Assembly (NCBI GenBank): GCA_032718475.1 | Contig: JAUCBJ010000045.1 | Span: forward strand, 1-64,000 | Direction of reading: 5' to 3' | Length of the DNA stretch: 64,000 nucleotides | From: Nemertoderma westbladi | Lineage: Eukaryota; Animalia; Xenacoelomorpha | Shown here: positions 30,603 through 58,850 of the stretch, piece after piece | Position numbering within the stretch: the first letter of the stretch is position 1 | Layout of the letters: each line of letters begins with the position of its first letter | Translations under genes and position numbers: made by a program | The notes under the pieces: generated by a model | What the model saw: only the letters and a program-made list of their open reading frames with translations | Database searches by the model: none | Told to the model about the DNA's origin: nothing

Positions 30603-31785
30603 TGTTTTTAAAGACTTTTAAAGCTTTTAAAGACCTTTGACAGTTTAACCTGCCAAAATTAGAATGTCCTTTGGATGATAGATAGTCTTTAGCCTATGAC
30701 GAGTATTTGATACACTACATTAGCCGAAGCCAGTCTATGCGCAATCATTCACCCGTTGGATATACCCGGGAGACTGAGTTCGGGGCTTAATGATTGATGG
30801 TGTAAGCCTACTGTATTATTCGACTGATCGTAATATATAATCTCTGACAAATATTATTCACTTTCGGGAAATATTAACAGTTCCTTTAGGACGTGGCGCT
30901 CTAAATATATAAACAGAGTTATGACTTAAACCAGACACAACGAAAAGGCTATAGATTCACGTATATGGCGCATTCTTTAGGAGATGCTTTGTTATCAGTT
31001 ACACTCATACACAATGCTGCACAATACTGCACACTAATCTGCCGACCTTCACTAAATTTGGTCACGTATAAAGAGAGCAACAGACAATTTATGTTGGGCA
31101 TATGAAATAGCATTAGATTCACTTCAAACCACTCAACATACATAGGTCGCAATCGTTTATCTGTAACCGGTCTCTCTAACCTTTAGTATATCAAGAAGGT
31201 GGGGTGTCTGACTATTGATCAGTATTCCGATATAATAATTCATCAACAATATAATGAATAACCGACAGTAAAAGCAGTAATATTAATGTATAAATGATTA
31301 TTAAGTGAATGAGTTAACTTGTGTAACTCGTGATAACAGATATACGTTCTATAATTGAGCCTACTAATGTAAGACTAAAGACTGAAAACACGGAGGTGCC
31401 AAAAGCCGGTTCTTAGGCTCTGGGCAAAAACATAACACTGAACTACTGAGTTTCTGTATACACCTCCAACACAGAGACAAAAAACGCTCTGATTGGTCAA
31501 CCGAACAACGAGAGAACAAAGAAACAAAGAAACGTCGACGTGGCAATATCAGCTGTTAGCCGTCGTCATGGTAGCGACACTGTTTTCAAGAGTATCTAGC
31601 TTATCGCGTCACGAGATTGCGGATTATGTCCTCTAAAGTATAAATACAGTACAAATACATAAGAAATGACTTTTATGTCCTCTAAAACACCAGTACAGCA
31701 AGGACACGGCCTTTTTATGCCTGGCAAACCAACTACAGAGTACTTTAAGGGAAAATAACCGGTTAATGACGCAAAAGCTTTTACA
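30603..31785 (-). repeat. Element A 3' LTR (about 1183 bp)
   Basis: TG...CA ends, adjacent PPT, near-identical to 57627-58231. Confidence 0.92.
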
Positions 31786-31863
31786 CCGCTCCCAGAAAAT
31801 GGGATTTAAGTCTATAAAATATAACAAATCATAGTTTCTAAAATATAAAAATACTCTAAACAG

Positions 31864-32504: not shown

Positions 32505-32509
32505 GTCTC

Positions 32510-33746
32510 TGTTCGCGCTTTCGAAGACCTTTAGCAGTTTAACCTGCCAAAATTTATATGTCTTTTCGTTAATTAAAACCACTTTAGCATACGACAATAA
32601 TTTATGCTAATACGCAAAACATTAGCCGAAGTCAGCCCATGCGCGATCATTCACCCGATGGATCTACACCCGGGAGACTGAATTCGGATGCTTGAATTGT
32701 ATTATTACAGTGTAAGGTTGCAGTGTATACCTAATGTATTATTCGATAGATCGTTAATAATTAATCTCTGACAGATATTATTGGCTTTCGGGAAATATTA
32801 ACAGTTCCTTTAGGACGTGGCGCTTTATCTATTTAAACAGAACTAAGACTTATACTAAACGCAACGATACTGCTTATGATTAAAGTATAAAACGTATTCT
32901 TTAGGAAATACTTTGTTACCAATCACAATCATACACACTCTTCTGCCGACAGTCAGTATATTTGATCACACATAAAGAGAGCAGTAATTGACTCACGTAG
33001 GGTCTGCTAAATAACATTGGATTCAATACACACCACATTAATATAAATCGCAATTGTTATTTATAGCCGGTCTCTCTAACCTGTAGTGTTATCAAGAAAA
33101 TTGGGAATTGGGTGATTTATCCGTATTATCCAAATAGCGATATTTCCATCAACAAATATTTACAATTAATAACTGACGGTAAAATAACAGTACAAACAAT
33201 ATGATTAATGAATTAGTGAGTGATTTAAGTCAGGATTGATGAGGTAACAGTTTATACTTTCGATAATTCAAGCAGTTTACGGTACAGCAGTATTGGTTAC
33301 AAAATGCCGGTGTTTCTGGCTTAGACAGCAATAACAACAAAAGTAACAACTCTCTCTCTCAGTAAGACAGAACACTCTCCTTATGATCGGCAGGAAAGCT
33401 ACACGTCGACAGGAAAAACCGCCCTGATTGGCCCAAGCCAAACAAAGAACCACGCGGCCAATGGCTGTTTCCATGTCAACAACCAGCTGCTAGATGTCGT
33501 AATATGAATCATCACGGCTAAGCTGTGAAAGGTGGTTTGTGCATTACAAGTTTTTGTCTTACCATGTCCGCTAAAACACGTATATAGCAGAATGATTTTT
33601 ATGTCCGTTAAAACACCTGTAAAGGTACCTTGCGGGCGAGGGGAATATATATACAGTTAGAAAACCTTTTTTAGAGTATTCCAGCGCCGGGGGGGGAACT
33701 GGCCAGCAAAGGCAAACGTATCAGTTATCCCACAAAAGCTTTTACA
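32510..33746 (-). repeat. Element B 3' LTR
   Basis: Direct repeat of 43340-44576. Confidence 0.97.
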
Positions 33747-33824
33747 CCGCTCCCAGAAAATGGGATTTAAGTCTATAAAATATACAAAATCACAGTTTCT
33801 AAAATACAAAAATACTCTAAACAG

Positions 33825-35273: not shown

Positions 35274-35326
35274 ATCTGTTATCTGAGTTTATTAATATCA
35301 ATATAAGTTAATTCTAGCCAATATTT

Positions 35327-35481
35327 TAGGCAAGCGGGCGTCACTGCCTACTAGGCCTTTTGCCCCCGGACAGTGGGTTTCTCAGCGCCGATGTACCGCT
35401 GTCGCAGTGTTTACGCCAACATGTAGCAACAGCACGACAACGATAACCGACACAAGTCCCACCACTGTCCGTCCCAAAGGC
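35327..35481 (-). other. Candidate structured RNA upstream of the accessory gene (homolog at 45500-45656)
   Basis: Nested stems CGGACAGUGG/CCACUGUCCG and GUGUCGGU/AUCGGCGC plus hairpin UAGGC..GCCUA; pairing is kept in A through compensatory and wobble changes. Confidence 0.55.
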
Positions 35482-36908: not shown

Positions 36909-39900
36909 TTACGTTATGGAGTCCCTAGATCTTTGTCGAATTAGGGAAGTGGTCGTAGGAAGAGTATCCTGCCTTCCATGGTTTCCGGACAGTTTTTGGT
37001 CTCTTTCCAGTAAACATAAACGACCAGCTGGGTGATTGGGTTGTCGTGTTACTTTCTCCGCTCCCTTGGCCTGTCTACTCTCCGCCGTGGTAAGATGAGG
37101 AGGCCATTCATCTTCTTCTTTACTTAGGGAGTCGGGTCCACCTAACCAGCCGGGAGTATCTATCCGTTCTTGAGGAGTCGCTCCTCTGGAAGCGATGTAG
37201 GCTAGATTAATCATCTCGGGGCGATGTCTCCATTGATCTTCATTGGAGTTAATATCGTCATTATCTGAGGAGTATGGTGTTCCCTCAGTTAGTTCGTCCA
37301 CTTCACTGCTCTCCACTTCCAAACCATTTATCTGGTATAGTCTTTCTGATGGTAGTCTCTCTTCGAGAGTTCTGCGGGAAGGGCCAGTAAAGTACCAACC
37401 TACTCTAGTTCTTACCGCATAGGTTTGTAGTGGCTGCGGTTGAGCAGGTCGTTTTTCCAATGTCTCGAGCGCCTCGTGCGCGTTTTGGCCGATAAGTATT
37501 TGCACTCCAGGATAATCCGTCTGGAATCGAGGTATCTTAAGATGTTGGATGCTCTCATCCTCGTCCCAATTATAAAGGTCTGCTTGGGTAGTAGCGAAGT
37601 TCTTTATAGCCACCATTTTTACTGACCTTATACTTTGTGCTCCTAATTTATCCTGGGGGGTGGACAACGCACCTATATAGTAATCTGCCGTTATGGTAGA
37701 TTTCCAAACCTGCATAATTCCGGACATATTCAACTTAGTTTGGAATTTGGGTTGTCCAGCAAAGATATCTTCGGCTAGTTCTTGATCGATGAATGTTCCT
37801 GTGCTGCCGGAGTCAAGGAGTGCGTTCACTATGTAACTTTTGTTGGGACCGTGAACTCTTACCTGCACTACAGGAAATTCTCTGATTCCTACATTGGAAG
37901 TTGGAGTTTTCCAAGATGGTGGTTTGTCAAAAGTAGTTGGGGGAAACTCATTGGTGGTGTCTTTTTCGTAAGTAAGTGCTCGATACACTGCGGTATTTAT
38001 TAGGTAACAGGATTCGTTGGCGTCGGAGAATTCGTCCGTATAGAATCCTTCCCACTCAGAACTTTGGTCAGTGTCGTTCACATCACTGAATTGGACATGT
38101 GATTTGGGCTCACTTACCTGACTCGGGCTGTTTCGTTCGACTTCCGTGTGCAACAAGCTATGATGTTTCGCGCCGCACTTAGCACACCTTGCGTCAGAGT
38201 AACAGGTTCGCCGCTGGTGTCCGCGTCTGAGACAGTTATAACATAACCGCTTATCCCACAGGACTCCACGTCTATCTGCCATGGATTTCTTTAGGAATTC
38301 TGCACACGCACTCAAACGGTGGGGCCCGTCGCACAGCGCACATTTTGGTTTGATGTTACTCACCTTAACTTGGTTAACGTTCTGCACTCTCGTTCTTTCT
38401 TCGGGCTTTCTTCCGTGAATTCTCTTAGGAGACGTAGGAGGAGTTGTTGTTACCTGTTCTCTCCTGTCACTGATTCGAGACTTGTATTTACTTACGTCTT
38501 TATAGGTCTTGTTGTCATAGTAAGATTTTGCTGTGTCTTTCCCGCTGTCCTCTTCTTGAGAAGCTTGGCTTTCGCCGTCGTCAGTATAACACACTGGTAT
38601 TATCCTTCTCCTAGAAACGGGTTTCTCACTTACCTTATTTTCCGATGTTTTCTCTCTGGACTGCCTTATGAGTTGTAATTTTACTTCACTATCTAAGAAA
38701 GACATGAGATCAGCCATGGTAGGACTTCGTCGTTGTTGTTCATTCATGTTCAACACTTTCTTGTCCCAGCGTGTACATACTCCACCCTTTGGTAAAGTAG
38801 AGACTACGGCTCCAATAACCATGGAACTCTGATATTCATGCGACTTACCTAACCAGTCCAGTTGTCTACAGATCTCTTGAATTTCATCGGAAAACTCTAT
38901 AATCTCGCTACTAAGGAAGTGTCGGGGGGCTACTAATTTTGCATACAAATACTTAGCTATGTTATCCTTGTTACCATACCTGATGTTTAGTGTATCCCAA
39001 ACTTGTCTTAATCCATTTGGATGTCCAATAAACTTTAACGCCATTAACTTGGGAGGTCCTTCCAAGCACTTGATGAGGAATCTAAGTTTCTCTCCGTTAG
39101 ATAGTACAGAGTTCTGTATGCTATCTTTGTAATATTCGTTGAAAGGTAACCATTTCATCTCATCTCCATTGAATTTGACGATCTCTCCCACTTTGACCGC
39201 TTGGCGGGCTTCTGTTCTAGCCATCTGACGCGTAAAGCTTTCTTGGGCCATCGTGTTATTTAATATCGAATTATCGGTATATAAATTTCTCGGATCATTA
39301 TCAGGTCTATAGGGAATATCATTAATAACAGGTCTATAATCACCCTTAATAGGGTTTGCTATAGGAGTTTCAACTTCACTAGCAGTATAGATGCGTGTAG
39401 GCTCCACACCTTGCGCATGTAATACTTCAGACCTAACGGGTTGACACAATGTTACAGGGGGCATTGGTATGCCTTTTTGTATATTGACTAATTTGTCGCG
39501 TTCTAGCGCGATACTTTGCTGCACTTCTTGCAACTCTGCTCTACCTTCCCTCACTGTTCCCTTAAGTTGGTGGACAGTCTCCTGCATCTCTCCTAGCAGA
39601 AGATTCATCCCCCGCCGTCCCTCTTCCACCCACTCAACCGCCGAAGCGGGAGTCGCCAACATAGTAGCGGGCTGACGCGGGACGACGGGAGACAAATTAT
39701 TGATTTCTCTCTCTGCTATCTGGACAGGGGTATTTGAATGGACTGTTCCACCGGGTACAGGCAGTGTAGTGCTATGTAAAGGGAATTTAGAGTTAAGCTC
39801 TGGAAGTGTAGGGGTCTCTAGCACAGAAGTGACTTTGGGAACTACAGGCCTAATTATTTCAGGTTCATCGACTATAGTAAGGAGTCTTTTGACCTGGATA

Positions 39901-41060
39901 AATTGTTCTATAGGTTCTGCACTACCTAAATCTGTGCTAGTTAGCTGTCTTTTAACAGCTGGGGGCAAATCAGGCAATTTACGACGGTAATATGTTTTTC
40001 TACGCCTACTTAGATGAGATCTATCTCCTCCGCCTTCAGGGTCGGTAGTATCGCCTTCCTCCGATGATGTGTACCCCTGGCGCTTGGGAGTAGATTTTCT
40101 CATCATCTGCATTTGATTAGCAGTAAACTGTTTATTTATACTGTCTTGTGTCTCTTGCAGATTCTCCAACTCCAGTTGGGTAGTCTGCTCAGATGCTCTC
40201 CTTTCTGCTTCTCTCACTGCCTTTGCCACCTTTCTTTCTGCTTCTACTTCTGCCGCTGCTGTCTTTCTTTCTGCTGCTGCTTCTGCCGCCACTGCCTTTC
40301 TTTCGGCTTCTGCTTCTGCCGTAGCCGCCGCCATAGCCGCCGCCTTTTGTTCCTCTATCCTTCTTTTCTTTATTTGTTCTTCTTGGACTCTAACGAGGCG
40401 GAGTTTTTCATCACATTCAGCTTGGTTTGCAGCTAACATTTCAGCATCGAGTGCGTCCAACACAAGCTTGGTTCCTTCACTATTAGGGCGAAGTCCAGAC
40501 AGTCGTCTCCTCAACTCTTCGTCTCCTATGAATCGCTGATAGTCTGACAGATAGATGTCAATGGCATCTCTAGTTCGCGGCTTCTCTGCTGCTGTTAATT
40601 CGCTTTCCACTTCGCTTTCCACTTCGCTTTCCACTTCGCTTTCCACTTGAGGAGAAGCAGCGTCGGTTGATTCTTCAAAGGTTGGTCGCTCATCATAAAC
40701 CGTATCCGCCATCTTCGCTCCGCGTTCGGGTCTCCGCTCAGCAGTATCCGAACAACTGGAGCCATCGGGCCGCTGAGAACTAGGTTCTGGGCTAGGAGGT
40801 TGCTGCTGTTTGATAGCTGCTTCTTGATCCCGCTTGACTTGGGCCCGAGTGCCGATGATAGACCTACGGTGTTCTACTAGTCTAGGGTCTGACACTACTA
40901 CGGTAGGGATGGCCTTTCTTACAGCAGGAGGTGACTTAGACTTGGATCTAGGATGTTCTATACTGGGATCTGGGTCACTGATCTTTTTAAGACACTGTCT
41001 AACAGTCATTCTAACACTTTCCAAAAGACTATCCGACAGTGATTGGGTTGTGTCCGACAT
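36909..41060 (-). CDS. Element B Gag-protease polyprotein, 1383 aa, lacking RT and integrase
   Basis: DUF1759-like capsid region (KFNGD..W..F, KLRFL..CLEG, LNIRYG); three BEL-type knuckles (CALCDGPHRLSAC, CYNCLRRGHQRRTC, CAKCGAKHHSLLH); protease ALLDSGS; then only an RNase H tail remnant (IASRG..WLGGP..EWP). Confidence 0.93.
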   Translation of the reverse strand: MSDTTQSLSDSLLESVRMTVRQCLKKISDPDPSIEHPRSKSKSPPAVRKAIPTVVVSDPRLVEHRRSIIGTRAQVKRDQEAAIKQQQPPSPEPSSQRPDGSSCSDTAERRPERGAKMADTVYDERPTFEESTDAASPQVESEVESEVESEVESELTAAEKPRTRDAIDIYLSDYQRFIGDEELRRRLSGLRPNSEGTKLVLDALDAEMLAANQAECDEKLRLVRVQEEQIKKRRIEEQKAAAMAAATAEAEAERKAVAAEAAAERKTAAAEVEAERKVAKAVREAERRASEQTTQLELENLQETQDSINKQFTANQMQMMRKSTPKRQGYTSSEEGDTTDPEGGGDRSHLSRRRKTYYRRKLPDLPPAVKRQLTSTDLGSAEPIEQFIQVKRLLTIVDEPEIIRPVVPKVTSVLETPTLPELNSKFPLHSTTLPVPGGTVHSNTPVQIAEREINNLSPVVPRQPATMLATPASAVEWVEEGRRGMNLLLGEMQETVHQLKGTVREGRAELQEVQQSIALERDKLVNIQKGIPMPPVTLCQPVRSEVLHAQGVEPTRIYTASEVETPIANPIKGDYRPVINDIPYRPDNDPRNLYTDNSILNNTMAQESFTRQMARTEARQAVKVGEIVKFNGDEMKWLPFNEYYKDSIQNSVLSNGEKLRFLIKCLEGPPKLMALKFIGHPNGLRQVWDTLNIRYGNKDNIAKYLYAKLVAPRHFLSSEIIEFSDEIQEICRQLDWLGKSHEYQSSMVIGAVVSTLPKGGVCTRWDKKVLNMNEQQRRSPTMADLMSFLDSEVKLQLIRQSREKTSENKVSEKPVSRRRIIPVCYTDDGESQASQEEDSGKDTAKSYYDNKTYKDVSKYKSRISDRREQVTTTPPTSPKRIHGRKPEERTRVQNVNQVKVSNIKPKCALCDGPHRLSACAEFLKKSMADRRGVLWDKRLCYNCLRRGHQRRTCYSDARCAKCGAKHHSLLHTEVERNSPSQVSEPKSHVQFSDVNDTDQSSEWEGFYTDEFSDANESCYLINTAVYRALTYEKDTTNEFPPTTFDKPPSWKTPTSNVGIREFPVVQVRVHGPNKSYIVNALLDSGSTGTFIDQELAEDIFAGQPKFQTKLNMSGIMQVWKSTITADYYIGALSTPQDKLGAQSIRSVKMVAIKNFATTQADLYNWDEDESIQHLKIPRFQTDYPGVQILIGQNAHEALETLEKRPAQPQPLQTYAVRTRVGWYFTGPSRRTLEERLPSERLYQINGLEVESSEVDELTEGTPYSSDNDDINSNEDQWRHRPEMINLAYIASRGATPQERIDTPGWLGGPDSLSKEEDEWPPHLTTAESRQAKGAEKVTRQPNHPAGRLCLLERDQKLSGNHGRQDTLPTTTSLIRQRSRDSIT

Positions 41061-43326
41061 ATTTGTTTACACAGTCGAATGCCTACAGCTATAAATACAG
41101 TTAAAGCAAGTCTAGTAATTCAGTATCACTGCTAGCCTAATAATTAATTACCGATACTGCTACTTAATATAGCGGGATATATATATATTATATCAGAATA
41201 CCGGTATGCTTATAGTATATATAAGTATTATTACAGACTAGATTTGCCACAGAGTACCGGTGTATAAATTTAGCACAAATATATATATAAATATATAAAT
41301 ATATAATAGGCCTATCGTGGATACCGGTATACAGCTTACACTTATAATATATATAAAGTATAACTATGAACTAAAATTAATTACAGAATACCGGTATGAT
41401 TTCAGCTCAAATTTATAGAAATAAATATAATAAGCCTATGGTAAATACCGGTATGTCAATTATTTTAGAATAATTGAATTTCTGAATATTTAGGGTTACT
41501 TGGTTACTTTAACTTACTTTGTTACCGTTATTTAAGCAGTAGTCCAACTGATTTTGAGACCTAGTTGTTGTATGGCAGGCCTACTACTTATAAATCGTTT
41601 GAGTTGATTTATAATAGATATATACCCGTTTAAATGGGTTTTTTGTCAATATGTGAAATAAATGTTATTATTTCTGGGGGAATCACTACACAGAAGCTGT
41701 GCGCTGTCAGTGAAGTGTTACTTATTGAGACACTAAAACAGATTATTCTAATTTACCTAAGTTACTTATCTACGAATTACTTACGATATGGGTGAGATTA
41801 ATTCTCTAATTAAACACAACAAAATATTACGTACGAATTTTTAGGGTAATTTTACAGGAAGTCTACAAACCAGTCCAACAAAGGGTTAGATTTCTGGTTA
41901 TTACCAAGGACAGGGTACTAAGGGATTTAAATAATAAGTAGTAGTAAATATATTGTACTGTCCAGATAGGAAAATACCACCGCCTGACGACCTATAACCG
42001 TATCGCTATAGGTACTACGTTATGTATCACGGATTGTTCCTACCCAGAAGCTAATAGAGCTAACGAATGTGCCTATCAACCACTTTACAACACAAATATA
42101 CTGCCTACACTAATTACTTAGGAAAGCACTGTACACTAAACCCTAAATTAGGTACAAGTACCGGTATAACAAATAATCAGTAGTTAAATATACTTGAACA
42201 GTTAAAAGAACCACGGCATCTGCTGGAGTGACCGAAGCACAAAGTCGTCAGTCTTTACCTACGCCAAGCAGCCCTGATGTAGTACCGGGGTTAGTTTAAC
42301 TATAACGGTATGTGTAACAAGCACAATTACTGTAGGAATAAACTTGGGGACATGAATGTTGCGAATAATCGCATAAACTCTGAATAATAAATATTACGCT
42401 ACCCGTACAGAATACTCAAACAAAATACAAACCAAACGCTGGCAAACTACTATCAAGCCTAAACAAACTACAGTATGTGCAGATTCTGAAACTGTTAGTT
42501 AGTATGCGTGCTAACACGGTAGTACGACTTACTCTTTAAGAGGGGATTGTCCTTACAGCATATGGCTGCCCCAACTTACTAACGGCACTTGATCAGACCA
42601 ACTCTACACACGCAGCAATCCCTTCAGACCTAAAAATAGCTAGACAACAATCCAGCCTACAAATATTTGAGTAATAACTATTACGGTACCTGAACAGACC
42701 ACACGACAAACAAACACAGGCTAAAACACTGACAGACTACGATCAAGCCTAAATAAACTACAGTATATGCAGACTCTGAAACTGTTAGTTAGTATGCGTT
42801 CTAACACGGTAGTACGACTTATTCTTTAAGAGGGGATTGACCTTCAGCATATGGCTGCCCCAACTTACTAACGGCACTTTATCAGACAAACTCTACACAC
42901 GCCGTAATCTCTCCAAACTCAACAACAGTCAGACAGCAGCCCAGCCTACAATTATCTGAACAATCTGAGCAGGGTCACACGCCTTCTGCTCAATATTAGC
43001 CTACTAGTAAATAAAACTGACAGAAATAGACCTAAGTAAAATCCCAATAAAAACCAGGCGTCCCCGATTTAATATCGAGACCTACCGGTATACAATAATC
43101 AAAATCGAATAATACTAAATGTACTTGTACAGCAGTACCGGTACCGGTGATGACAGTTAGGCCTACTGACCTACAGAAGCACCGGTTCAGTTTTACCAGT
43201 CACTACGGTATTTTGCAACCTTATTGCCTACTGCAATAAGATTATAAACTGTTACTGTTCACCAGAACAGTATTAAACTGTATTTAATGCCTACACTTGC
43301 AACCTTATTGCCTACTGCAATAAGAT

Positions 43327-43339
43327 TATAAACTGTTAC
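43327..43339 (-). promoter_or_regulatory. Element B non-tRNA primer-binding site GTAACAGTTTATA
   Basis: Flush with the 5' LTR end, no TGG; 13/13 complementary to LTR positions 44074-44086. Confidence 0.75.
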
Positions 43340-44576
43340 TGTTCGCGCTTTCGAAGACCTTTAGCAGTTTAACCTGCCAAAATTTATATGTCTTTTCGTT
43401 AATTAAAACCACTTTAGCATACGACAATAATTTATGCTAATACGCAAAACATTAGCCGAAGTCAGCCCATGCGCGATCATTCACCCGATGGATCTACACC
43501 CGGGAGACTGAATTCGGATGCTTGAATTGTATTATTACAGTGTAAGGTTGCAGTGTATACCTAATGTATTATTCGATAGATCGTTAATAATTAATCTCTG
43601 ACAGATATTATTGGCTTTCGGGAAATATTAACAGTTCCTTTAGGACGTGGCGCTTTATCTATTTAAACAGAACTAAGACTTATACTAAACGCAACGATAC
43701 TGCTTATGATTAAAGTATAAAACGTATTCTTTAGGAAATACTTTGTTACCAATCACAATCATACACACTCTTCTGCCGACAGTCAGTATATTTGATCACA
43801 CATAAAGAGAGCAGTAATTGACTCACGTAGGGTCTGCTAAATAACATTGGATTCAATACACACCACATTAATATAAATCGCAATTGTTATTTATAGCCGG
43901 TCTCTCTAACCTGTAGTGTTATCAAGAAAATTGGGAATTGGGTGATTTATCCGTATTATCCAAATAGCGATATTTCCATCAACAAATATTTACAATTAAT
44001 AACTGACGGTAAAATAACAGTACAAACAATATGATTAATGAATTAGTGAGTGATTTAAGTCAGGATTGATGAGGTAACAGTTTATACTTTCGATAATTCA
44101 AGCAGTTTACGGTACAGCAGTATTGGTTACAAAATGCCGGTGTTTCTGGCTTAGACAGCAATAACAACAAAAGTAACAACTCTCTCTCTCAGTAAGACAG
44201 AACACTCTCCTTATGATCGGCAGGAAAGCTACACGTCGACAGGAAAAACCGCCCTGATTGGCCCAAGCCAAACAAAGAACCACGCGGCCAATGGCTGTTT
44301 CCATGTCAACAACCAGCTGCTAGATGTCGTAATATGAATCATCACGGCTAAGCTGTGAAAGGTGGTTTGTGCATTACAAGTTTTTGTCTTACCATGTCCG
44401 CTAAAACACGTATATAGCAGAATGATTTTTATGTCCGTTAAAACACCTGTAAAGGTACCTTGCGGGCGAGGGGAATATATATACAGTTAGAAAACCTTTT
44501 TTAGAGTATTCCAGCGCCGGGGGGGGAACTGGCCAGCAAAGGCAAACGTATCAGTTATCCCACAAAAGCTTTTACA
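43340..44576 (-). repeat. Element B 5' LTR
   Basis: Direct repeat of 32510-33746. Confidence 0.97.
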
Positions 44577-45458
44577 GTCTCACTAGGGAATGAGGAGTTC
44601 TGATCGAGTATTCCGAAACTCTGATCATAGGTTTATTTAAGGATCGTCTGAGTCGAACGAGCGTAGGGGATACATCAAACAAGTTTCGCTCGAAACTCCC
44701 ATAAGTATAGCGAGTAAAACCGTGTTTAAAGCAACGTCTCCGCGGATGTTTATGTCTTTCCGTTTGTTGGTTGGGTCTTGGGCATTCATCGCAATAATAC
44801 CCAAAAACGTACGTCTTGTAGGGGAAACGCGAGTGATCTTTCTCCAGCTTACAATATTCCTCCATCCGTTCGAAGCTATTCGGTACAACAGGTAGCGGTC
44901 GATCGGCGGTAAGATACATCATAGTGGAATAGAGCCGTTTGAGTCCTACCATGTGGTCATGATGTATACCTTGAGGATATCGAGTTTCTAGATTCTGTTG
45001 ACTGGTAATATCGAGATAGGTTTCTCTCAAGAATTCCAGGTATTTGCTGAAGTCGCTGCGTTTATCCGGCTCTTCAACATCTGCACTTTCGAGTCGGTTT
45101 CGAATAGAATTTTCGTGTTCGAGTCTCAGTTTATCGTTCCGCTTCCGCTGGGTATGATATTTAAATAAACCATTTCCCTTTGGTGTCTATATCATTCGTA
45201 TCGTGTAGGTTGATAGGATGACCAGTAGTTAAGAAGTCCACATACGTACCATTACGATGCGTATAGCGAGCGGTGAATTTTCTATAGTCCAACTCACGCG
45301 CAAGTTGCTCCCGGGACATTGGCGGTTAGATATAACGACCATCGTCCTCCGTAGTAGTTGGACCAGCGTCGCCGCGTATCAAGATATCGACAAACGCTTG
45401 TAAAGGTAGAGTATATCGCTCCCTGATACCAAGATCATCTTCTATCAACTCAATCATA
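44577..45458 (-). pseudogene. 5' part of the element A accessory gene
   Basis: MIELIEDDLGIRERYTLPLQAFVD.. is homologous to B 34875-35273 but has a TAA and two 1-nt deletions; EHENSIRNRL runs in frame into ORF 44572-45030. Confidence 0.8.
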
Positions 45459-47105: not shown

Positions 47106-50100
47106 TTACGTTATGGAGTCCCTAGATGTTTGAAGGATTAGGGAGGTGGTCGTGGGAAGAGAATCTTGCCTTCCACAGTTTCCGGAGAGTCCTCCATTCC
47201 CTTCCGGTAAACACAAACGACCGACTGGGTGATTGAGTCGCTGCATCCCGAATACAATTCCAGGTTTCCTCTTCGTCCTGGAATAGTGACGATAGAAACA
47301 TCGCTCTAGGTACACGACGGCCTTACAAAGCCGATTCCAGGAGCTATAGTGGTCCGTCGCTCCCTGCAGGAGAGGTGAGAGTCCCTGCGAGACGTCTGAT
47401 GTTCCAGAGCTCCAATCGCTCTCTCTGATCTTCATGAAGGATCCACTCGCGGTGGGGAGGTCCAGATCCACGGCGTCGTCCCTGGCAATATGTAATACCG
47501 ACAGATCTATCCCGGGTTCAAATAACTCCGATCCACCCGTCCGGGTTTTAGGTTTGACTTTCTCCGCTCCCTTGGCTGGTCTAATCTCAGTCGGAGTAAG
47601 ATGGGGAGGCCATTCATCCTCCTTACTCAGGAAGTCGGGTTCACCTAACCGGTCTGTAGTATCTGTCAGTTCTTGAGGAGTTGCTCCTCTGGAAGCGATG
47701 TCAGTTGGATTAAACTTCTTGGGGCAATATCTCCATTGATCTACATTGGAGCTAATATCGTCATTATCTGAGGAGTATGGTGTTCCCTCAGTTGGGTCGT
47801 CTCCCTCACTAGTATCATCTTCCCATTCACTCACCTGGCAGACGCGATCTTGAAGCAGTCTTTCTCTGAGCGTTCTTCGGGAAGGTCCAGTAAGGTACCA
47901 ACCTACTCTAGTTCTTACCGCATAGGTCTGAAGTGGTTGCGGTTGAGCAGGTCGTTTCTCCAATGTCTCCAGCGCCTCATGCGCGTTTTGACCGATTAAT
48001 ATTTGTACTCCAGGATAATCGGTGTCGAATCTAGGAATGTTAAGTTGTTGGGCATGATCATCTTCGTCCCAATTATAAGGTTCCACTTGGGTGGTAGCGA
48101 AGTTCTTTATTGCCACCATTTTGACTGACCTTATACTGTATTCTCCTAGTTTATCCTGTGGAGTGGACAACTCACCTATATAATAGTCGGCAGCCACAGC
48201 AGATTTCCAAACCTGCATGATCCCTGACATGTTTAGCTTGGTTCGGAACTTGGGTTGTCCAGCAAAGATGTCTTCGGCTAGTTCTTTATCGATGAATGTT
48301 CCTGTGCTGCCGGAGTCCAGGAGGGCGTTCACTATATAGCTCTTCTGAGGTCCGTGGACCCGTAACTGGACTACAGGAAATTCTCGGATTCCTACATTTG
48401 AAGTTGGCGCTTTCCAAGATTGTTGTTGATCTGAAGTAGTTAGGGTGAGGTCGCTGTCTGTATCTTTTTCATGAGTGAGTGCTCGATACACTGCGGTATT
48501 TATCATGTAACAGGATTCGTTTTCGTCGGAGAACTCGTCCGTATAGAATCCTTCCATCTCAGATTGATCAGTGTCGTTCACATCACTGAATTGGACATGT
48601 AGTTCGGAATCACTCACCTGACTCGGACTATTTCGCTCGAATTCAGTGTGCAACAAGATATGATGTTTCGCACCGCACTTTGCACACCTTGCGTCGGAGT
48701 AACAGGTTCGCCGTTGGTGTCCTCGTCTGAGGCAATTATAACACAACCGCTTATCCCACATGACTTCACGTCTGTCCTTTAGAGATTTCCTCAGGAATTC
48801 ATCACACGCACTTAAACGGTGGGGCCCATCGCACAGCACACATTTGGGCTTGATGTTACTTACTTTAACATGTGCTGTGTGGTGCACGTTCGTTCTTTCC
48901 TCGGGCTTTCTCACCTGAATTCTCTTGGGAGACGTAGGAGGAGTTTTTCTTACCTGTTCTCTCCTGTCATTGGTTCGAGACTTGAATTTACTTACCTGGT
49001 CTTTAGGCGTTTTGTTGTCATAGTAAGATCTTTCAGTGTCTTTCCCGCTATCCTCTCCTTGAGAAGTCTGGCTTTTGCTGTCGTCTGTATAACACACTGG
49101 TATTACCCTTCTCCTAGAAACGGGTTTCTCACTTACCTTGTTTTCCAGTGTCTTCTCTCTGGACTGCCTTAGGAGCTGTAATTTCACTTCTCCATCTAGG
49201 AATGACATGAGATCAGCCATGGTAGGGTCTCGTCGTTGTTGTTCCATCATATATAACACTTTCTTATCCCAGCGTGTACCTACTCCACCCTTCGGTAAAG
49301 TAGAAGCCACTGCTCTAATAACCATAGCACTCTGATACTCATGAGACTTACCTAGCCAATCTAATTGTCTGCAGATCTCCTGAATCTCATCGGAAAACTC
49401 TATAATTCCGCTGCTAATAAACTTTCGGGGCGCTACCAACTTTGCATACAAATACCCAGCTATGTTATTCCTATTACCATACCTGATGTTTAGTGTATCC
49501 CAAACTTGTCTTAATCCGTCTGGATGTCCAATAAACTTTAACGCCATTAACTTGGGAGATCCTTCCAAGCACTCTATGAGGAATCTAAGTTTCTCTCCAT
49601 TAGATAGCACAGAGTTCTGTATGTTATCTTTGTAATATTCATTAAAAGGTAACCATTTCATCTCATCTCCATTGAACTTGACGATCTCTCCCACCTTTAC
49701 CGCTTGCCGGGCTTCGGTTCTAGCCATTTGACGCGTAAAACTTTCTTGGGCCATCGTGTTATTTAATATCGAGTTATCGGTATATAAATTTCTCGGATTA
49801 TGATCCGGTCTATAGGGAATATCATTATCAACAGGTCTATAATTACCCTTAATAGGGTTCACTATAGGAGTTTCTACTTCGCTAGCAGTATATATGCGTG
49901 TAGGCTTCACACCTTGCGCATGAGATACTTCAGACCTAACAGGTTGACACATTGTTACCGAGGGTGGTGGTATACCCCTTTGAGTATTTACTAATTTATC
50001 GCGTTCTAGCGCGATACTTTGCTGCACTTCTTGCAACTCTAGCCTACTTTCCCTTACTGTGCCCTTGAATTGCTGGACAGTCTCCTGCATCTGCCCGAGC

Positions 50101-50111
50101 AGGAGATCCAT
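47106..50111 (-). pseudogene. Element A Gag-protease, C-terminal part (separated from its N-terminal part by insertion C)
   Basis: Highly similar to the B polyprotein from MDLLLGQMQE onward; has ALLDSGS, NPTDIASRG and YSSWNRL remnants; no RT or integrase core. Confidence 0.9.
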
Positions 50112-50642
50112 GTGGCAGTTCAAGTATATAAAACACTGGTTCGGTAATTTTCTACAATCCAAAAATGTCTATAATCAAAAACTAAGTAACATATATCAAT
50201 AATTCTTATACACTCCTAATACTAATACTCATCCTAATACCAATATACTTCACCAATATTAAGGCACTAACTCAAAAATGTATATAACCAGCTGTTTGCC
50301 TTAACCAACCAATATACATTACATATTACACAATGTAGTCCTTCAATTAACGTACAGTATACTATGGGGATTGTCACACTCCCCGACAAAATATGCAAAT
50401 AGTCTTTCAATTAACGTACAGTATACTATGGGATTGTCACACTCCCCGACAAAATATGCAATTACGACAACTTATACCATTCCACCAATAACTGCAATAT
50501 AGTTACAATAATGACAAAACATAAATGTGACAATGCTGTACAATACAAATCTGTATCAATAATTATATGCAAAAATATCTCACTTATAGTTACACAGTCA
50601 CAGTTACTTATTTGATGCACGACACCAACCCTACAGTTAGGT

Positions 50643-52302
50643 CTAGTTGTCAATTTCTAATGGGATAAGTCCTTGTACAGGTCGAGTGATAATTATACTG
50701 CTGATTTTTTTGCCTATTTTTGCAATTTTTACTTTTACAGATCTGATACTATTATCACGACCATGTAAGAGCTCTACTATAATCCCTAGCTTCCATAATT
50801 GGCGCGGTTTCTTGATCTTAGAAGTAGTTTCATCCAGTAACACCACCTCACCAACCCTCGGCTGACGTGTCTGATATCGGCGAATAGAGTAATGCTGTCT
50901 AAGAGTTGTCAGATACTCGCGAGCCCAAATGTTCCAGAATTTATCTATCAATTGGTCTTTGTATTTGGTGCGTCGGGTCACATTCTCAGCATTCAATTCG
51001 TCATTAATATTATTACTGCTGATATTATCTGTTTCAGGTCTTTCAGTGAGTCGCTTTCCGATTAATAAATGTGACGGAGTTAGAGGTTCCAAAATCTCGT
51101 CTGAATACACGTAAGTTAGTGGGCGACTGTTAATTACACTCTCAACTTTTATCAATAAGGTATGTAACTCGTCGCTATTCAATAATGCGTTTCCTATCGA
51201 CTTCCTCAATGCTCTCTTCACACTTTGCACTAGTCGTTCCCAGTACCCTCCCCACCAAGGGGCATGTTCACATATAAAGTTCCATTTGATATTTAAATTT
51301 GCTATATGGGTTTGTGTTTTCTTGGCTGTGAAATTACTTCCATTATCTGAAGTTATTGTTGCTGGATATCCCCTGCGACCAAAGAATCTATCTAAACCAC
51401 GGATAGTAAACTCCGCATCTATACTTTCTTGTAATTCAAAATGTACCGCTCTAGACGAATTACATGTAATCAGAAGAATATGGCATTTTTCAATCAGTTC
51501 ATTATTTCGAACATACATTGGCCCCGCTATATCCACACCGACATCATTAAATGCTAGACTTCCACTCACCCTATCCAGGGGTAAACAAGGTGTATCTGGG
51601 GGTGTGAATGCTTTTGCTTGTTGTTTGCGACATATAACACATTCATTTAATTGTTTCTTAATAATTTGTCTGGCCTGGGGTATATAAAACTTGTTTCTCA
51701 GTTGCACAAATGTATCACGAACTCCAGCATGTAATACTTCTGTTTCGTGACATTGTCTAATGATTAACGTCGTCAGATAAAGTTTTTTCGGTAGCAGTAT
51801 TGGATCTTTCGCTGTTGTGGGCACCTGATATGCCATATCAATGCGGCCTTTGCATCTTATCAAGCCCTCAGCATCTAGGTATAAGTGAAGTTGATTGATT
51901 AAGTTTCTCACATAAGGCTCTTTGTCGCATTTTGTCGTCAATTGTGAAACAACTTCAGGATACATTTCTGCTTGAACTTCCTTTAAGCATAAAGTGCTTG
52001 CTTTGCTTCTTTCCAGAATAGTTAAAACACCTAATTGTTTGGGGGTATCCTTCCCTATCCTTGCCTTCAGATTATTGACAAAACGGTACATCCATGCCAC
52101 TACTTGAATCAGCTTATTGTAGCTGCTATAACGAAGTATTATTGAATCATGCACTTCGTTTGAGATAAGTAAGACTGACGGCATTTCTATTGGGTTCTTC
52201 AACTCTTTAAAAGCCTCTTCCTCAATATCTCTTGTCTCTATGGTTTTCGAAGGATAATCTATCACATTTGACACCCATTCCGGACCACACCACCAGATAT
52301 TT
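50643..52302 (-). CDS. Element C BEL/Pao integrase region (5'-truncated, still open)
   Basis: WWCGPEW RNase H tail, H..HAG..CVIC zinc finger, DIAGP / SDNG / WERLV catalytic DDE triad, DUF5641-like C-terminus (FWNIWAREYL, WKLG, RPVQGLIPLE). Confidence 0.92.
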
Positions 52303-52326
52303 CTGGCTGGGGAAGGTTGAATAAGA

Positions 52327-53120
52327 CAATGAGGCCATTGACATTTTACAATCAAGGTTTGGACATAAACAGCTACGTATTAACGCCCATATGAAGAGAA
52401 TAATAAATCTACAGGTAGCCTGTATGAAAGTGGACGATTTAAGAAAATTGTATGATGAAGTCAATATTCAGATTAGAGGACTCTTGACACTTGGTCTATC
52501 AAGTGATACATATGGGGCCCTGCTTGTTGCCATCTTAGTGTCAAAATTGCCGGAAGAAATTATTTTAGAAATTTCGCGTGTTGAGAAGGGCGAAATTTGG
52601 GATATAAACGTTGTATTAAAAACATTAAGGGAAGAAGTTGAGGCAAGAGAGATTGCAGCACAACAACAGGAAAAAACAGATGTAAAACAGGCAGCCTGGA
52701 AAAGCTTCAATGGTGAAATTGGTACAGCATCGGCATTGTTAGAAAATAGCAATTCAAGATTTAAACCCGCTGTTGCTAGATATACACGTAGGCCGGATAA
52801 TTGTGTGTATTGCGACAAAGCACATCGCAGTACTGATTGCGAACAATTCTATAATATGCAAAGCCGAATTGTGCGGTTGCAGCAATTAAATAAATGTTTT
52901 TCTTGTTTGGGGGAGGGACACATTGCTAAGGAATGTGCAAGGAAAATTAGTTGCATCATCTGCTCAAGGCCACACCATATTTCTCTGTGCAGTAGAGTTT
53001 CTGCGCCATTTTATGGAAAAGCCGATGTAAAATATAGAACAAATTATGAGCGTCAAGGTCCAGGATATAATGTTGGGTTTGTTGAAAACTATCCAATTCC
53101 AACGCCACCTAGAGGGGAGA
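52327..53120 (+). pseudogene. Inverted BEL gag fragment within C
   Basis: EAIDILQSRFG, SKLPEEI, knuckles CVYCDKAH..C, CFSCLGEGH..C, CIICSRPHHISLC. Confidence 0.88.
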
Positions 53121-53136
53121 TCAAGAATGGTATATA

Positions 53137-53330
53137 TCAAGCCTGGTATTGTTCTAGTAGTTTGGGTTGTTTTTGCATCTTCTTTAATAGAGTTTCGTAC
53201 CTACGCTCAGCTAGGTAATAATTATTAGGCAAATTAGCCTTTTGCGATGAAATCCATGGTAATTTAATTTCGTATCTTCCATTGATCATCTCTGGTTGTT
53301 CAATAAAATCTAAGTTAAAATGTGAATCCG
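53137..53330 (-). pseudogene. Short BEL pre-RT fragment within C
   Basis: GRYEIKLPW..LPNNYYLAERR..L..Y motif that precedes the RT domain in BEL/Pao polyproteins. Confidence 0.8.
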
Positions 53331-53548
53331 GATTGAAAAATGCCATATTCTTCTGATTACATGTAATTCGTCTAGAGCGGTACATTTTGAATTACAAGAA
53401 AGTATAGATGCGGAGTTTACTATCCGTGGTTTAGATAGATTCTTTGGTCGCAGGGGATATCCAGCAACAATTACTTCCATTATCTGAAGTTATTGTTGCT
53501 GGATATCCCCTGCGACCAATGAGGCCATTGACATTTTACAATCAAGGC

Positions 53549-55456
53549 CCCCCGCCGTCTCTCGTCCACCCATTCGACCGCCGAAGCAGGAGTCGCCAAC
53601 GTTGTAGCGGGCGGACGAGGGACAACGGGCGACAAATCATGAATATTTCGCTCGGGGTCCAGGACCTGAACTGTCTCCTGGGCAGTTCTACTGGGCATAG
53701 GTAGCTTAGTGCTGTGCAAAGGGAATTGAGAAGTAGGTTCAGGGAGTACAGGTGTCTCTACGACCGAAAGGGTTGCTTCGGGAACAGGCCTAATTATTTC
53801 AGGCTCATCTACTATAGTAGGGAGTCTTTCTATTGTAATTATTTGGTCTGTGGGTTCTGTACTACCTAAGTTGGTGTTATTTAGTTGCCTTCTAACAGCT
53901 GGAGGCAAATCAGGCAATTTCTGACGGTGGAATGTTCTTTTACGTCTGCTTAGGTGAGATCTATTTCCCTTGCCTTCAGTATCGGTGGTATCGCCTTCCT
54001 CAGATGATGTATATCCCTGTCTTTTGGGAGTAGATCGATTCATCATCTGCATATTACTAGCTGTTAACTGTTTATTAACGTTGTCTTGTCTCTCTTGAAG
54101 ATTTTCCAACTCTAGTTGGGTTGTCTCTTCAGATGCCCTCCGTTCTGCTTCTGCCACTGCTATTTTTCTTTCCGCTTCGGCCGCCTTTCTTTCGGCTTCT
54201 ACTGCTGCAGCTGCCGCTTTTGCCTCTGCCGCTGCCGCTTTTGCCTCTGCCGCTGCCTCTGCCGCTTTCTTTCTATCTTCTATACGTTTTTTCTTTACTT
54301 GTTCTTCTTGAACCTTAACGATGCGGAGTTGTTCATCGAATTTAGCTTGATTAGCCGCTAACCTATCCACGTCGATGGCGTCAAGCACACGCTGTGCTCC
54401 TTCACTATTAGGGCTAAGTCCCTCTAGTCTTCTCCGCAACTCTTCATCACCTACAAAACGTTGATAGTCTGACAGATAGATGTCAATGGCATCCCTCTTA
54501 TGCGGTTTCTCTGCCATCGCTTCACTTTCCACTTGGGAAAAAGTAGCGTCTGTTGATTCTCCATGGGTTGAGCGCTCCTCCAGTTGATCTTTCCACTGAG
54601 CTGTTCCTTGAACCTGGCGACTCACCCGTTGAAACCAAGTCTTTACGGCAACTTGCAACGACGTGTCTTGTCTTCTTTTAGAAGCCTCTTCAAAGGCTGA
54701 TAATATTAGCCTGATTCGCAGAATTCTTTCTCTAACTTGATAAAGCAGTTGTCCCTGCTCTTGAGGTCCTAGAGGTTGTTGTAACAGTTGTTTTTCTACT
54801 CGCTCCATAGAGCTGAAGAATCCCTGTGCGTATCCGGCTGCGGACCTCTTCCACACAGCTGGATCGATGGTTTCCTTGGCTACTCCCATCCGGTGTATGT
54901 CTTCCCAGGCAGCTTCTGATAAATCAAACGGGAGTCCGGGTCCGGGGAAGTTCCATTGCGACTCGACCATAGATTTCAGTTCTTCCTTTGTGTATCCTGC
55001 ATAACTATCTTTAGTTGAGCGCTTACTTCGCGCCCAATCGATCTGGTGTTCTTCCACCGCGATCAATAACTTGGTGAGTACGGCTGCAGGAAGGATGAGA
55101 AGTGGATCCGAATAAACCGCATCCGTCATCCTTGCTCCGCGCTCGGGTGTCAGTTCTACAGTATCTTCACTACTGGAGCTGTCGGGCCGCTGAGAAATAA
55201 GTTCTTGGCTCACGGGTTGTTGCTGTTCCGCTGCTTCTTGGTCCCGCTTGACCTGGGCTCGAGTGCCTATGATAGACCTACGATGTTGGACCAGCCTAGG
55301 TTCTGTTATTACTACTGGAGGGATGACTTTCCTCACAGTGGGAGGTGAACTGAACTTAGGACTAGACGGTTCTACACCCTTATCTGAGTCGCAGATAGTT
55401 ACATCTAATACACTGTCTGACAGGTTCTGCTTAGTATCAGACATGTTTGTTTGCAC
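53549..55456 (-). pseudogene. Element A Gag, N-terminal part
   Basis: Homologous to the B N-terminus up to VEWVDERRRG, where C interrupts it. Confidence 0.9.
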
Positions 55457-57615
55457 AGTTGAATGCCTACTGCTATATTACAGTTTAAGCAAGTCTAGTA
55501 ATTCAGTATTAACTGCTAGCCTAGTAATTAATTACCGATACTGCTACTCAGTGTAGCGTGATATATAATATATTAGTATACCGGTATGCTTATAGTATAT
55601 ATAAGTATTATTACAGACTAGTTTTTTCACAGAAACCGGTATATAATTTTAGCACAAATATATATAAATATATAATAGGCCTATCGTGGATACCGGTATG
55701 CAGTTTACACTTATAGTATATATAAGTATAATTACAGACTAGAATTAATTACAGAATACCGGTATGATTTCAGCACAAGTATATAAATATATAATAGGCC
55801 TATCGTAAATACCGGTATATCAATTATTTTAAATAATTGAATTTCTGAATTTTAAGGGTTACTTGGTTACTTTAACTTACTTTATTACCGTTATTTAAGC
55901 AGTAGTCCAACTGATATTGAGACCTAATTATTGTATGGCAGGCCTACTATTTATAAATCGTTTGAGTTGATTTATAATATATATACCCGTTTAATGGGTT
56001 TTGTCAATGTTGAAATAAATGTTATTATTTCTGGGGGAGTCACTACACATAAGCTGTGAGCTCTCAGTGGAGTGCTACTTGTTAGACACTAAAACAAATA
56101 ATTCTAATTTACCTAAGTTACTTAATACTACAAATTACGTACAATTCGGGTTGAGATTACAATCTCTAAATAAACACAAAAATTTACAAAAACACAAAAT
56201 ACGAATTTTCAGGGTAATTTTACAAGAAGTCTACAAACCAGCCTAACAAAGGGTTAGAATTCTGGTTATTACAACGGACAGGGTACTGCGGTATTTGAAA
56301 ATAATAAGTAGTAGTAAATATACTGCGTTGTCCAGATAGGAAAATACCACCGCCTGACGACCTATAGCCGTATCGCTATAGGTACTACGTTATGTATCAC
56401 GGAGTGTTCCTACCTAGAAGTTAATAGAGCTAATCGAACGTGCCTATCAACCACTTTACAACACAAATATAATGCCTACACTAATTACTTTCGGAAAGCA
56501 CTGTACACTAAACCCTAAATTAGGTACGAGTACTTGTACAACATATAATCAGTAGTTAAATATACTTGAACAGCTAAAAGAACCACGGCATCTGCTGGAG
56601 TGACCGGTGCACAAAATCACCAGTCTTTACCTACGCCAAGCAGCCCGTGTAGTACCGGGGTTAATTTAACTATAGCGTGTATTTACTGTATGTATAACAA
56701 ACACAATTATTGTAGGAACAAACTTGGGGAATGAATGTTGCGAATAATCGCATAAACTCTGAATAATAAATATTACGCTACGCGTACAAACCACTCAAAC
56801 AAAATGCAGACCAAATACTGACAGACTACTATCAAGCCTAAACAAACTACGGTATATGCAGACTCCGAAATGATTAAGTAGTATGCGTTCTAACCCAGTA
56901 GTACGACTTATTCTTTAGATGGGGGTTTACCTTACAGCGATGGCTGCCCCTACTTCCTAACCGTTCTTTATCGGACAGATGCTTTGCACACACCGAAATT
57001 TCCTCAAACCCAACAACAGCCAGACAACTATCCAGCCTACAAATTATCTAAATAAAATTATACGCTACCCGTACAGACTACACAAACAAAGTACAGACCA
57101 AACGCTAGTCAACTACTATCAAGCCTAAATAAACCACAGGACATGCAGACTCCGAAATAGTTAAGTAGTATGCGTTCTAACCCAGTCAGCCAGTAGTACG
57201 ACTTATTCTTTAGCTGGGGGTTTACCTTACAGCAATGGCTGCCCCTACTTCCTAACCGTTCTTTATCGGACATACACTCTACATGTACTGTAATCCGTTC
57301 AGACCTAATCAACAGTTAGCCAACAATCAAGCCTAGAAATTATCTGTACAATCTGAGCAGGGTTACACACCTTCTGCTCAATATCAACCTACTAGTAAAT
57401 AAAACTGGCAGAAATAAGTAAACTATACAAAAGAATGAGGGGTGATCAATCCCTATTCCCCTGGCAGCCTACAGTATACAATAGATCACAATCGAATAAT
57501 ACTGCTGTACCTGTACTGTTGTAGGTACCGGTCCGGATGATCAGGCAGTCAGGCCTACTGGTTACCGGTCGACCGGTACTTTCGACTAGATTGCTTACAC
57601 CGCAATCCAGAAGCA

Positions 57616-57626
57616 ATATCTGTTAT
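57616..57626 (-). promoter_or_regulatory. Element A non-tRNA primer-binding site ATAACAGATAT
   Basis: Flush with the 5' LTR end; 11/11 complementary to the A LTR segment seen at 31333-31343. Confidence 0.7.
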
Positions 57627-58231
57627 TGTTTGCGCTTTTAAAGACCTTTGACAGTTTAACCTGCCAAAATTAGAATGTCCTTTGGATGATAGATAGTCTT
57701 TAGCCTATGACGAGTATTTGATACACTACATTAGCCGAAGCCAGTCTATGCGCAATCATTCACCCGTTGGATATACCCGGGAGACTGAGTTCGGGGCTTA
57801 ATGATTGATGGTGTAAGCCTACTGTATTATTCGACTGATCGTAATATATAATCTCTGACAAATATTATTCACTTTCGGGAAATATTAACAGTTCCTTTAG
57901 GACGTGGCGCTCTAAATATATAAACAGAGTTATGACTTAAACCAGACACAACGAAAAGGCTATAGATTCACATATATGGCGCATTCTTTAGGAGATGCTT
58001 TGTTATCAGTTACACTCATACACAATGCTGCACAATACTGCACACTAATCTGCCAACCTTCACTAAATTTGGTCACGTATAAAGAGAGCAACAGACAATT
58101 TATGTTGGGCATATGAAATAGCATTAGATTCACTTCAAACCACTCAACATACATAGGTCGCAATCGTTTATCTGTAACCGGTCTCTCTAACCTTTAGTAT
58201 ATCAAGAAGGTGGGGTGTCTGACTATTGATC
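57627..58231 (-). repeat. Element A 5' LTR (part), interrupted by element D
   Basis: Matches about 30620-31220 until GACTATTGATC, then switches to TGTTAGC. Confidence 0.93.
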
Positions 58232-58770
58232 TGTTAGCTTATTCAATCCCGCCAACACCCCATAAAGTTATAAGCCGATAAGCAATATTGGGAGCCACGA
58301 GATTGGGCAATTAACCAACTCGTGCCATCCCAATAAGAGTGGGAAGGAAGCACACAATAGAGGTTCAGGGGCCAAACCCCTAACCCAGAGAGAACAGGTG
58401 GAGTGAACGGGAATACTCCACGGGGCGCCAACAAGGGTAACAACCAATCAGAGGGGGGCAAGGCATCGATTAGGTAGTAATTAGGCCAACCGTGCAGTAT
58501 AGCCACTTGGCAGTAATATTACCTATTCAGTCATCTCAGTGCAGCAGTGCTAGCGTAGGATAATAGTTAATTAGTTTAGTTAGGGGAGCACGGGACTTTA
58601 GTTACCGTATCCCGCCTACCGTATAATTCACAATATATCTATATCCTATAACCTATTATTATACACCGAACTTCAGAACTCATTTAACTTCATTCACTCT
58701 TTATACACGGCGGGGACGCGTAAACTGAATACCAACCGGATAAATCGGGATCCTCCTGGATCCCGTCACA

Positions 58771-58779: not shown

Positions 58780-58850
58780 TCCGAGCTGCCGCCCCAGTTA
58801 AACTCTAAGAACTACACTGCCAGCTAGCCGAACTCCACCGACCAGACGAG

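Follow-up and report, generated by a model that had tools for sequence, protein, structure and literature searches.

Nested LTR elements in the window

The window, meaning the whole 64-kb stretch of animal DNA analysed here, was characterized by self-comparison and direct reading, and carries nested LTR elements from about 30.6 kb to its end. Element A has minus-strand orientation; its 3′ LTR occupies 30623-31785, and its 5′ LTR is interrupted at 58231. Element B sits within A (32510-44576, minus strand), and element D, on the plus strand, is inserted into the 5′ LTR of A, its own 5′ LTR being located at 58232-58770. Contigs from four sequencing runs indicate that the family is very high-copy, and 10 contigs of run X1 read as an A-type PBS adjoining a B-type LTR end. 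No tRNA gene was found within the 64-kb window by ARAGORN, and there is no Rfam match across 30000-64000. The features of the three elements, and of a fragment (C) lodged in A, are listed below.

43340..44576, minus: 5′ LTR of B, 1237 bp, TG..CA, identical with the 3′ LTR (1237/1237 bases)
32510..33746, minus: 3′ LTR of B, primer copy at 33244-33256, short purine tract just before the LTR
32505-32509 and 44577-44581: target duplication of B, GTCTC
43339->43327, minus: PBS of B, GTAACAGTTTATA, its first base directly after the LTR, 13/13 complementary to the primer motif
44074..44086, minus: predicted self-primer of B, LTR positions 491-503
43213..43260, minus: 48-bp duplicate in B of the LTR end, PBS and downstream hairpin, with the original at 43297-43344
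43471-43476 with 43343-43348 (span 43343..43476), minus: predicted 6-bp helix of B adjacent to the PBS, enclosing a U5 hairpin
44254..44261, minus: CCAATCAG box of B, 175 nt upstream of the B primer
36909..41066, minus: gag-protease ORF of B (DUF1759), RT and most of RNase H deleted in frame, without integrase
57626->57616, minus: PBS of A, ATAACAGATAT, 11/11 complementary to the A LTR at 31333-31343
57627..58231, minus: downstream part of the 5′ LTR of A, severed by the insertion of D
30623..31785, minus: 3′ LTR of A, last few bases damaged, primer copy at 31333-31343
47106..55477, minus: gag-protease of A in two pieces, split by fragment C, with the same RT deletion as B
58232..58770, plus: 5′ LTR of D, 539 bp, TG..CA
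58597..58605, plus: predicted self-primer of D, 9 nt
58771-58779, plus: PBS of D, GTAACTAAA, 9/9 complementary to 58597-58605
61110..63998, plus: gag-protease ORF of D (DUF1759, aspartyl protease), continuing past the window end
~50111-53540: fragment C, rearranged BEL/Pao pieces lodged in the gag of A

The Pfam domain DUF1759, which we take to be a marker of BEL/Pao gag, is matched in A, B and D with E-values from 1e-10 to 5e-12. The aspartyl protease match is clear in D (2.7e-5) and weak in B (0.016), and zinc knuckles are matched only weakly. Most of the best gag relatives of at least 1100 aa contain a YVDD-type RT motif. The set of TG..CA LTRs, target duplication and purine tract is complete in B; the ends of A are damaged, and only the 5′ LTR of D falls in the window. 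On this protein evidence A, B and D are filed as BEL/Pao, and their PBS, as read from the sequence, would be a departure from the ICTV profile.

A and B are sister families, with 87% gag-protease identity over 556 columns. In both, the profile alignment jumps from ~645 to 1189, the two sharing an in-frame deletion that removes RT and most of RNase H. Neither has integrase, and the pol of D lies beyond the window. A and B are non-autonomous, a point overlooked in the earlier sequence-only reading of this DNA. The gag of D shares merely 22-27% identity with that of B, in two segments. In fragment C, the minus strand has an RNase H end and integrase and the plus strand has gag; the fragment also carries a 164-bp inverted repeat, and no PBS is visible in it.

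Several other features were seen. B has an extra 349-aa frame ahead of its 3′ LTR (33825-34874, minus) with only a weak zinc-knuckle match, and this region has a counterpart in A near 31772-32129. Between the PBS and gag of D there are two long frames (531 and 274 aa; 58809-61173, plus) that have no Pfam matches. Outside the elements, an intronless cytohesin frame (Sec7 and PH, ~395 aa) lies at 7551-8819 (plus) amid tandem repeats and may be a single-exon gene or a retrocopy. A 207-aa frame at 556-1179 (plus) has a weak DUF6451 match, under the curated cut-off. Tandem arrays with units of 68, 29, 21/30, 38, 41 and ~155 bp occur within 4700-25500, a 527-bp inverted repeat pair occupies 22824-23350 and 24949-25475, and a 1.57-kb direct repeat of 93% identity is found at 26067-27634 and 29044-30603, its second copy stopping ~20 bp from the damaged end of the A 3′ LTR.

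Pairing of each PBS with its own LTR

None of A, B and D has a TGG-type PBS. By direct reading, the PBS begins with RTAAC right after the 5′ LTR in each element, as had been noticed from the sequence alone. The complementarity reported at that time between each PBS and its own LTR was re-derived from the coordinates, and is exact: 13/13 in B (43327-43339 against 44074-44086 and 33244-33256), 11/11 in A (57616-57626 against 31333-31343) and 9/9 in D (58771-58779 against 58597-58605). The pairing of A is visible only in its 3′ LTR because D cuts the 5′ LTR at 58232. In all three elements the pairing stops at the LTR terminal base, since the next LTR-side pair would be C against the terminal A. 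The distance from the motif to the LTR end is 734 nt in B, ~715 nt in A and 165 nt in D, in agreement with the earlier ~730 and ~165 nt. The earlier count of three different elements stands insofar as all three pair, but A and B are sisters, so the independent lineages are two, not three.

The partners in A and B have changed together. Their primers differ at 4 of 11 positions (1, 8, 10 and 11 counted from the 3′ end), each matched in the PBS; in a gapped alignment the differences amount to two substitutions and one indel. When PBSs and LTRs were swapped among A, B and D, the pairing fell to 5-7 nt. The naive chance of ~2e-5 first given for B was too strong, since dinucleotide shuffles give ~1.5e-4. 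Among 20,000 such shuffles of the LTR, the observed pairing was equalled 3 times for B, 20 times for A and 67 times for D. In D the duplex is short, at -7.3 kcal/mol, and the leader has 9-nt matches at 3 of 2200 positions, the PBS among them.

B holds a second full PBS copy (43243-43255), 84 nt downstream of the first, which had been overlooked before. This copy likewise has GAACA in front, and one contig of run X6 skips the duplicated-PBS stretch. The identity of its two LTRs marks B as young, and it retains the primer:PBS pairing despite the loss of RT.

An extended second helix upstream of the core was sought and is not significant in A and B (p 0.17-0.33) or in the pool of 17 elements (p 0.07-0.12); in D it is borderline, with 97/2000 shuffles as good at 40 nt and 782/2000 at 20 nt. 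A primer formed across a splice junction was also tried for A, B and D and rejected. In B, A and D, respectively, the best spliced pairings at donor-like sites are 7, 5 and 0 nt, compared with 13, 11 and 9 nt for contiguous ones; when every GT or GC is allowed as donor, the pairing lengthens by no more than 2 nt in B and not at all in A or D.

Relatives in other hosts

Relatives were collected with a single RT-based query, an alignment of 7 gag-pol relatives, and the best 80 of 549 metagenome loci were fetched together with 8 loci from prokaryote bins. Nineteen loci were chosen for an LTR repeat seeming to reach the 5′ LTR end, and 15 were kept; L056 and L087 were dropped for damaged ends, and L030 and L060 as members of the same families as L028 and L063. 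In this sample (best 80 of 549, plus 8), the search for a reverse complement in the own LTR against shuffles, carried into other hosts, bore out the signature: 14 of the 15 relatives pair with their cognate LTR over 10-15 nt. Thirteen of the 15, again from the best 80 of 549 plus 8 loci, do so across a GT-AG junction inside the LTR, as listed here.

Spliced-type relatives, 10-15 nt of pairing: L012, L020, L028, L031, L035, L063, L066, L073, L076, L079, L080, L082, L083

Within the same 15 (best 80 of 549 plus 8 loci), L059 is the sole contiguous case, with 10 nt, and 12 of the 13 spliced-type relatives have GT(A/G)AG donors, the donor of L035 having entered the pattern list only after it had been seen. 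The fifteenth relative, L061, pairs over only 6 nt with its 3′ LTR, whose one-base change is absent from the 5′ LTR. For each of the 14 pairing relatives, 0 of 200 PBS shuffles matched the observed value, and only 14 of 306 non-cognate PBS/LTR pairings reached 10 nt. The PBS starts 0-4 nt past the LTR in the relatives and at 0 in A, B and D, and the upstream exon of the relatives supplies only 3-9 nt of pairing.

A blind scan over the best 80 of 549 plus 8 loci matched 25 of 69 upstream regions, compared with 5 of 67 ORF-internal controls. It added the contiguous cases L062 and L077, and further candidates for spliced pairing, including L002, L003, L013, L018, L023, L048, L065 and L068. In L073, the 5′ LTR lacks exactly the 117-nt intron of its 3′ LTR (1-214 against 6769-7265), which leaves a 14-nt contiguous primer; the contig may be a chimera or RNA-derived. 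The 15 relatives represent roughly nine lineages, all from one query, so the signature is common in this branch, a result that does not extend to all BEL/Pao.

In a quick gag-protease tree of 31 rows (L048 and L076 excluded), contiguous elements stand beside spliced sisters at two starred nodes, namely L059 with L065, and L062/L077 with L063/L073/L080. The branches of A/B and of D in this tree are long, and because they meet, the placement of these elements is unsure. A, B and D are the intron-free form, possibly by intron loss. A word-indexed protein search with the gag of D gave nothing at E<=0.001, and two scans of viral contigs gave no relatives. The loci L081-L088 are BEL/Pao elements within bacterial genome bins of the GTDB collection, and most likely represent contamination from animal hosts.

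Position of the motif in the transcript and predicted folding

In 13 of the 15 relatives an A(A/T)TAAA follows the primer at a distance of 1-129 nt, and in none of the 15 is AATAAA found upstream of it (best 80 of 549 plus 8 loci), so the motif precedes the likely poly(A) site. Neither AATAAA nor ATTAAA is present in A, B and D. The identity between the A and B LTRs rises from 57% of aligned columns upstream of the motif to 73% downstream, and the 8-mer CCAATCAG recurs upstream of the primer, 153 nt away in both A and D as against 175 nt in B. This step in identity and the spacing of the 8-mer are consistent with a U3/R boundary near the motif. A matrix scan for TATA-like sites gave no match at 15-45 nt ahead of the motif in any of A, B and D.

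In folding predictions, the B primer:PBS helix reaches a probability of 0.93-0.99 if the RNA begins at the motif, the second PBS copy being the partner when it is included. On the first copy, the predicted values are 0.95 and 0.37 with 40- and 73-nt leaders, respectively. The B motif is predicted to prefer the second copy. The predicted helix of B fades once 30-100 nt of upstream sequence is added. For D, the predicted helix probability is ~0.01 if upstream sequence is left out and climbs to as much as 0.68 once it is included. The folding does not agree between the two elements, since B is better served by an RNA that begins at the motif and D by one that begins further upstream. The 6-bp helix adjacent to the PBS has one compensatory change between A and B, which is weak given only two sequences. 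Flanking duplexes like those of the Tf1 'pretzel' are not significant, 76 to 286 of 300 shuffles being as good, and no second 'pretzel' arm was found.

A probable self-derived primer and its alternatives

How, then, would minus-strand DNA synthesis start in these elements? The best reading of the sequences is a self-derived RNA primer, functionally like that of yeast Tf1. More precisely, we put at roughly 70% the likelihood of a mechanism in which a motif close to the beginning of R pairs with the PBS, the RNA is cut behind the last motif base and the motif primes minus-strand DNA with no host tRNA. By analogy with Tf1, the motif would be placed in the 5′ LTR where R begins, or close to it, and fold back onto the PBS, and the RNA would be cut right after the last motif base, probably by RNase H. 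The cut would free a 3′-OH opposite the first base after the LTR, from which RT would copy U5 and R and then jump to the 3′ R. Plus-strand synthesis would copy the primer back into the PBS. Since such copying would rewrite the PBS, a perfect Watson-Crick and sharp-edged pairing that follows every LTR change is what it predicts. Cleavage, priming and PBS rewriting are here inferred from Tf1. A and B would depend on an autonomous partner for RT, RNase H and integrase, only the structure being needed in cis, and most relatives would obtain their primer by splicing out an intron inside the LTR. The self-derived primer that the sequence-only reading had proposed came through the significance estimates, the A/B covariation, the specificity for the cognate LTR and the 14 of 15 relatives (best 80 of 549 plus 8 loci), which together argue for it. 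Its caution that the mechanism may differ from that of Tf1 was reasonable, because most relatives need a predicted splice junction and there is no TATA-like box at 15-45 nt. Further points for the self-derived primer are the blind scan, the place of the motif ahead of the likely poly(A) site, the step in A/B LTR identity, the predicted B helix and the pairing kept by B despite its loss of RT; the disagreement in folding between B and D, the missing TATA-like site and poly(A) hexamers of A, B and D, the short D duplex and the non-significant 'pretzel' duplexes count against it.

An alternative interpretation is that the elements are self-primed by an RNA whose primer is not at the 5′ end, through an internal cut, the 3′ LTR copy or a second RNA in trans. 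We regard this as unlikely. In its favour, a core promoter is missing at the expected distance from the motif, the predicted D helix requires upstream sequence, the intron-free 5′ LTR of L073 keeps at least 79 nt upstream of the pairing, and the upstream exons contribute so few of the paired bases. Against it, the pairing has a sharp end after 9-15 nt in each of the 17 elements where it is seen, which is expected if a short primer is copied, the second upstream helix is not significant, and cleavage of the 3′ copy would presumably remove the R needed in the first jump. Slightly less probable again is a regulatory or packaging structure that hides the PBS, with priming by another RNA or mechanism. 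The long, conserved R-U5 of A and B, which folds into helices, and the competing local folds of B and D would suit such a structure. The core pairs, however, are all Watson-Crick without G-U or bulges, whereas the U5 helices tolerate G-U; without exception the pairing begins within 0-4 nt of the LTR end, the position required of a primer, and the PBS sequences vary freely between families, so that no single outside primer fits.

A further alternative takes a host tRNA fragment or other small RNA as the primer, with the LTR motif as a mimic only. Half-tRNA priming occurs in several copia lineages according to the available part of PMC6317226, and tRNA priming is the ICTV entry for Belpaoviridae (PMC8742986). 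We nevertheless consider such a primer improbable. At 4 of 11 positions the two sister families have diverged, A and B each following its own LTR, and 14 relatives from the best 80 of 549 plus 8 loci have varied PBSs, every one of which matches its cognate LTR or the splice junction within it. Chance complementarity in AT-rich sequence could be entertained for D alone (p ~0.003, with the scattered 9-nt matches in its leader). For A and B chance is already largely refuted by the values at a fixed position (1e-3 and 1.5e-4) and by the covariation, and with the replication of the signature in the relatives we give it next to no weight overall.

A wider scenario, for which we would give about even odds, places the self-derived primer in the history of the group. 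In an animal BEL/Pao branch, tRNA priming would have been replaced by a self-primer spliced from an LTR intron; lineages like A/B/D would have lost the intron, the old exon joint becoming a contiguous primer; the origin would be separate from that of Tf1; and non-autonomous elements would use the structure in cis. If this is true, splicing would be tied to primer formation, assembly by splicing would single out the copy in the 5′ LTR as primer and leave the one in the 3′ LTR untouched, and a former exon joint, as much as 730 nt away from the PBS, would serve as a contiguous primer. The self-priming reading makes a base-exact prediction, namely an RNA 3′ end at the last motif base, joined to strong-stop DNA.

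Comparison with known systems

The ICTV profile gives Belpaoviridae an 18-nt PBS for tRNA-Arg or tRNA-Gly and tRNA priming, and calls the replication of BEL/Pao poorly understood (PMC8742986). A, B and D resemble the family (ICTV 2021) in LTR structure and gag-protease domains, and their relatives have one gag-pol frame and an FYVDD RT motif; unlike the profile, A, B and D lack the 18-nt tRNA-Arg/tRNA-Gly PBS (PMC8742986). In the openly readable papers searched, no description of self-priming in BEL/Pao was found. The main text of the Sinbad paper (PMC554778) mentions neither PBS nor tRNA, that of a BEL/Pao survey (PMC3118150) mentions no primer, PBS, tRNA or intron, and the accessible parts of PMC3601003, PMC2864245, PMC5445492 and PMC8220671 contain no BEL/Pao case. 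At the level of sequence, what is present in this BEL/Pao branch is a real, significant and replicated signature of putative tRNA-independent self-priming, which conflicts with the ICTV profile. If self-priming is true, BEL/Pao would be the third LTR superfamily with the signature, and this would explain why tRNA-based PBS filters miss such elements.

The closest systems compared are Tf1/Tf2 of Schizosaccharomyces pombe, Tj1, Tosmo1-3, and the Tf1/sushi and Tcn1 chromoviruses (Ty3/gypsy). In Tf1, the first 11 bases pair with the PBS and RNase H cuts (available text of PMC7175516), and a three-duplex structure is required, as given in the accessible part of 10.1101/2022.12.06.519325. For Tj1, Tf2, Tcn1 and the copia TAR lineage, self-priming has been proposed or shown, according to the portions available of PMC4600332, PMC5341516 and PMC6317226. 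In A, B and D, as in Tf1-type elements, the PBS lies against the LTR end and is complementary to the element's own LTR, and the PBS-adjacent 6-bp helix of A/B resembles one arm of the Tf1 'pretzel', a resemblance from two sequences and not significant against shuffles. They differ from Tf1/sushi in having a BEL/Pao-type gag, belong to another superfamily and are not members of that group. Their primer-PBS loop of up to ~730 nt is also unlike Tf1-type elements, and the primer of most relatives spans a predicted splice junction, which the available sources do not describe for Tf1-type elements. A, B and D would work like Tf1, a 5′-terminal primer and RNase H cleavage being putative features in them.

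Two copia groups offer further comparisons. The fungal GalEa elements, with their 'conserved hairpin site', likewise have no tRNA PBS and carry a conserved pairing element at the PBS position, but its partner is a leader sequence 12-41 bp further downstream, and no complement in the LTR was found by the authors, as far as the accessible part of PMC5445492 goes. The TAR lineage (Houba, Osr-1) of plant Ty1/copia differs from the BEL/Pao elements in superfamily and host kingdom, and is like them in that its self-priming is predicted from sequence, for 89% of 203 elements (available part of PMC6317226).
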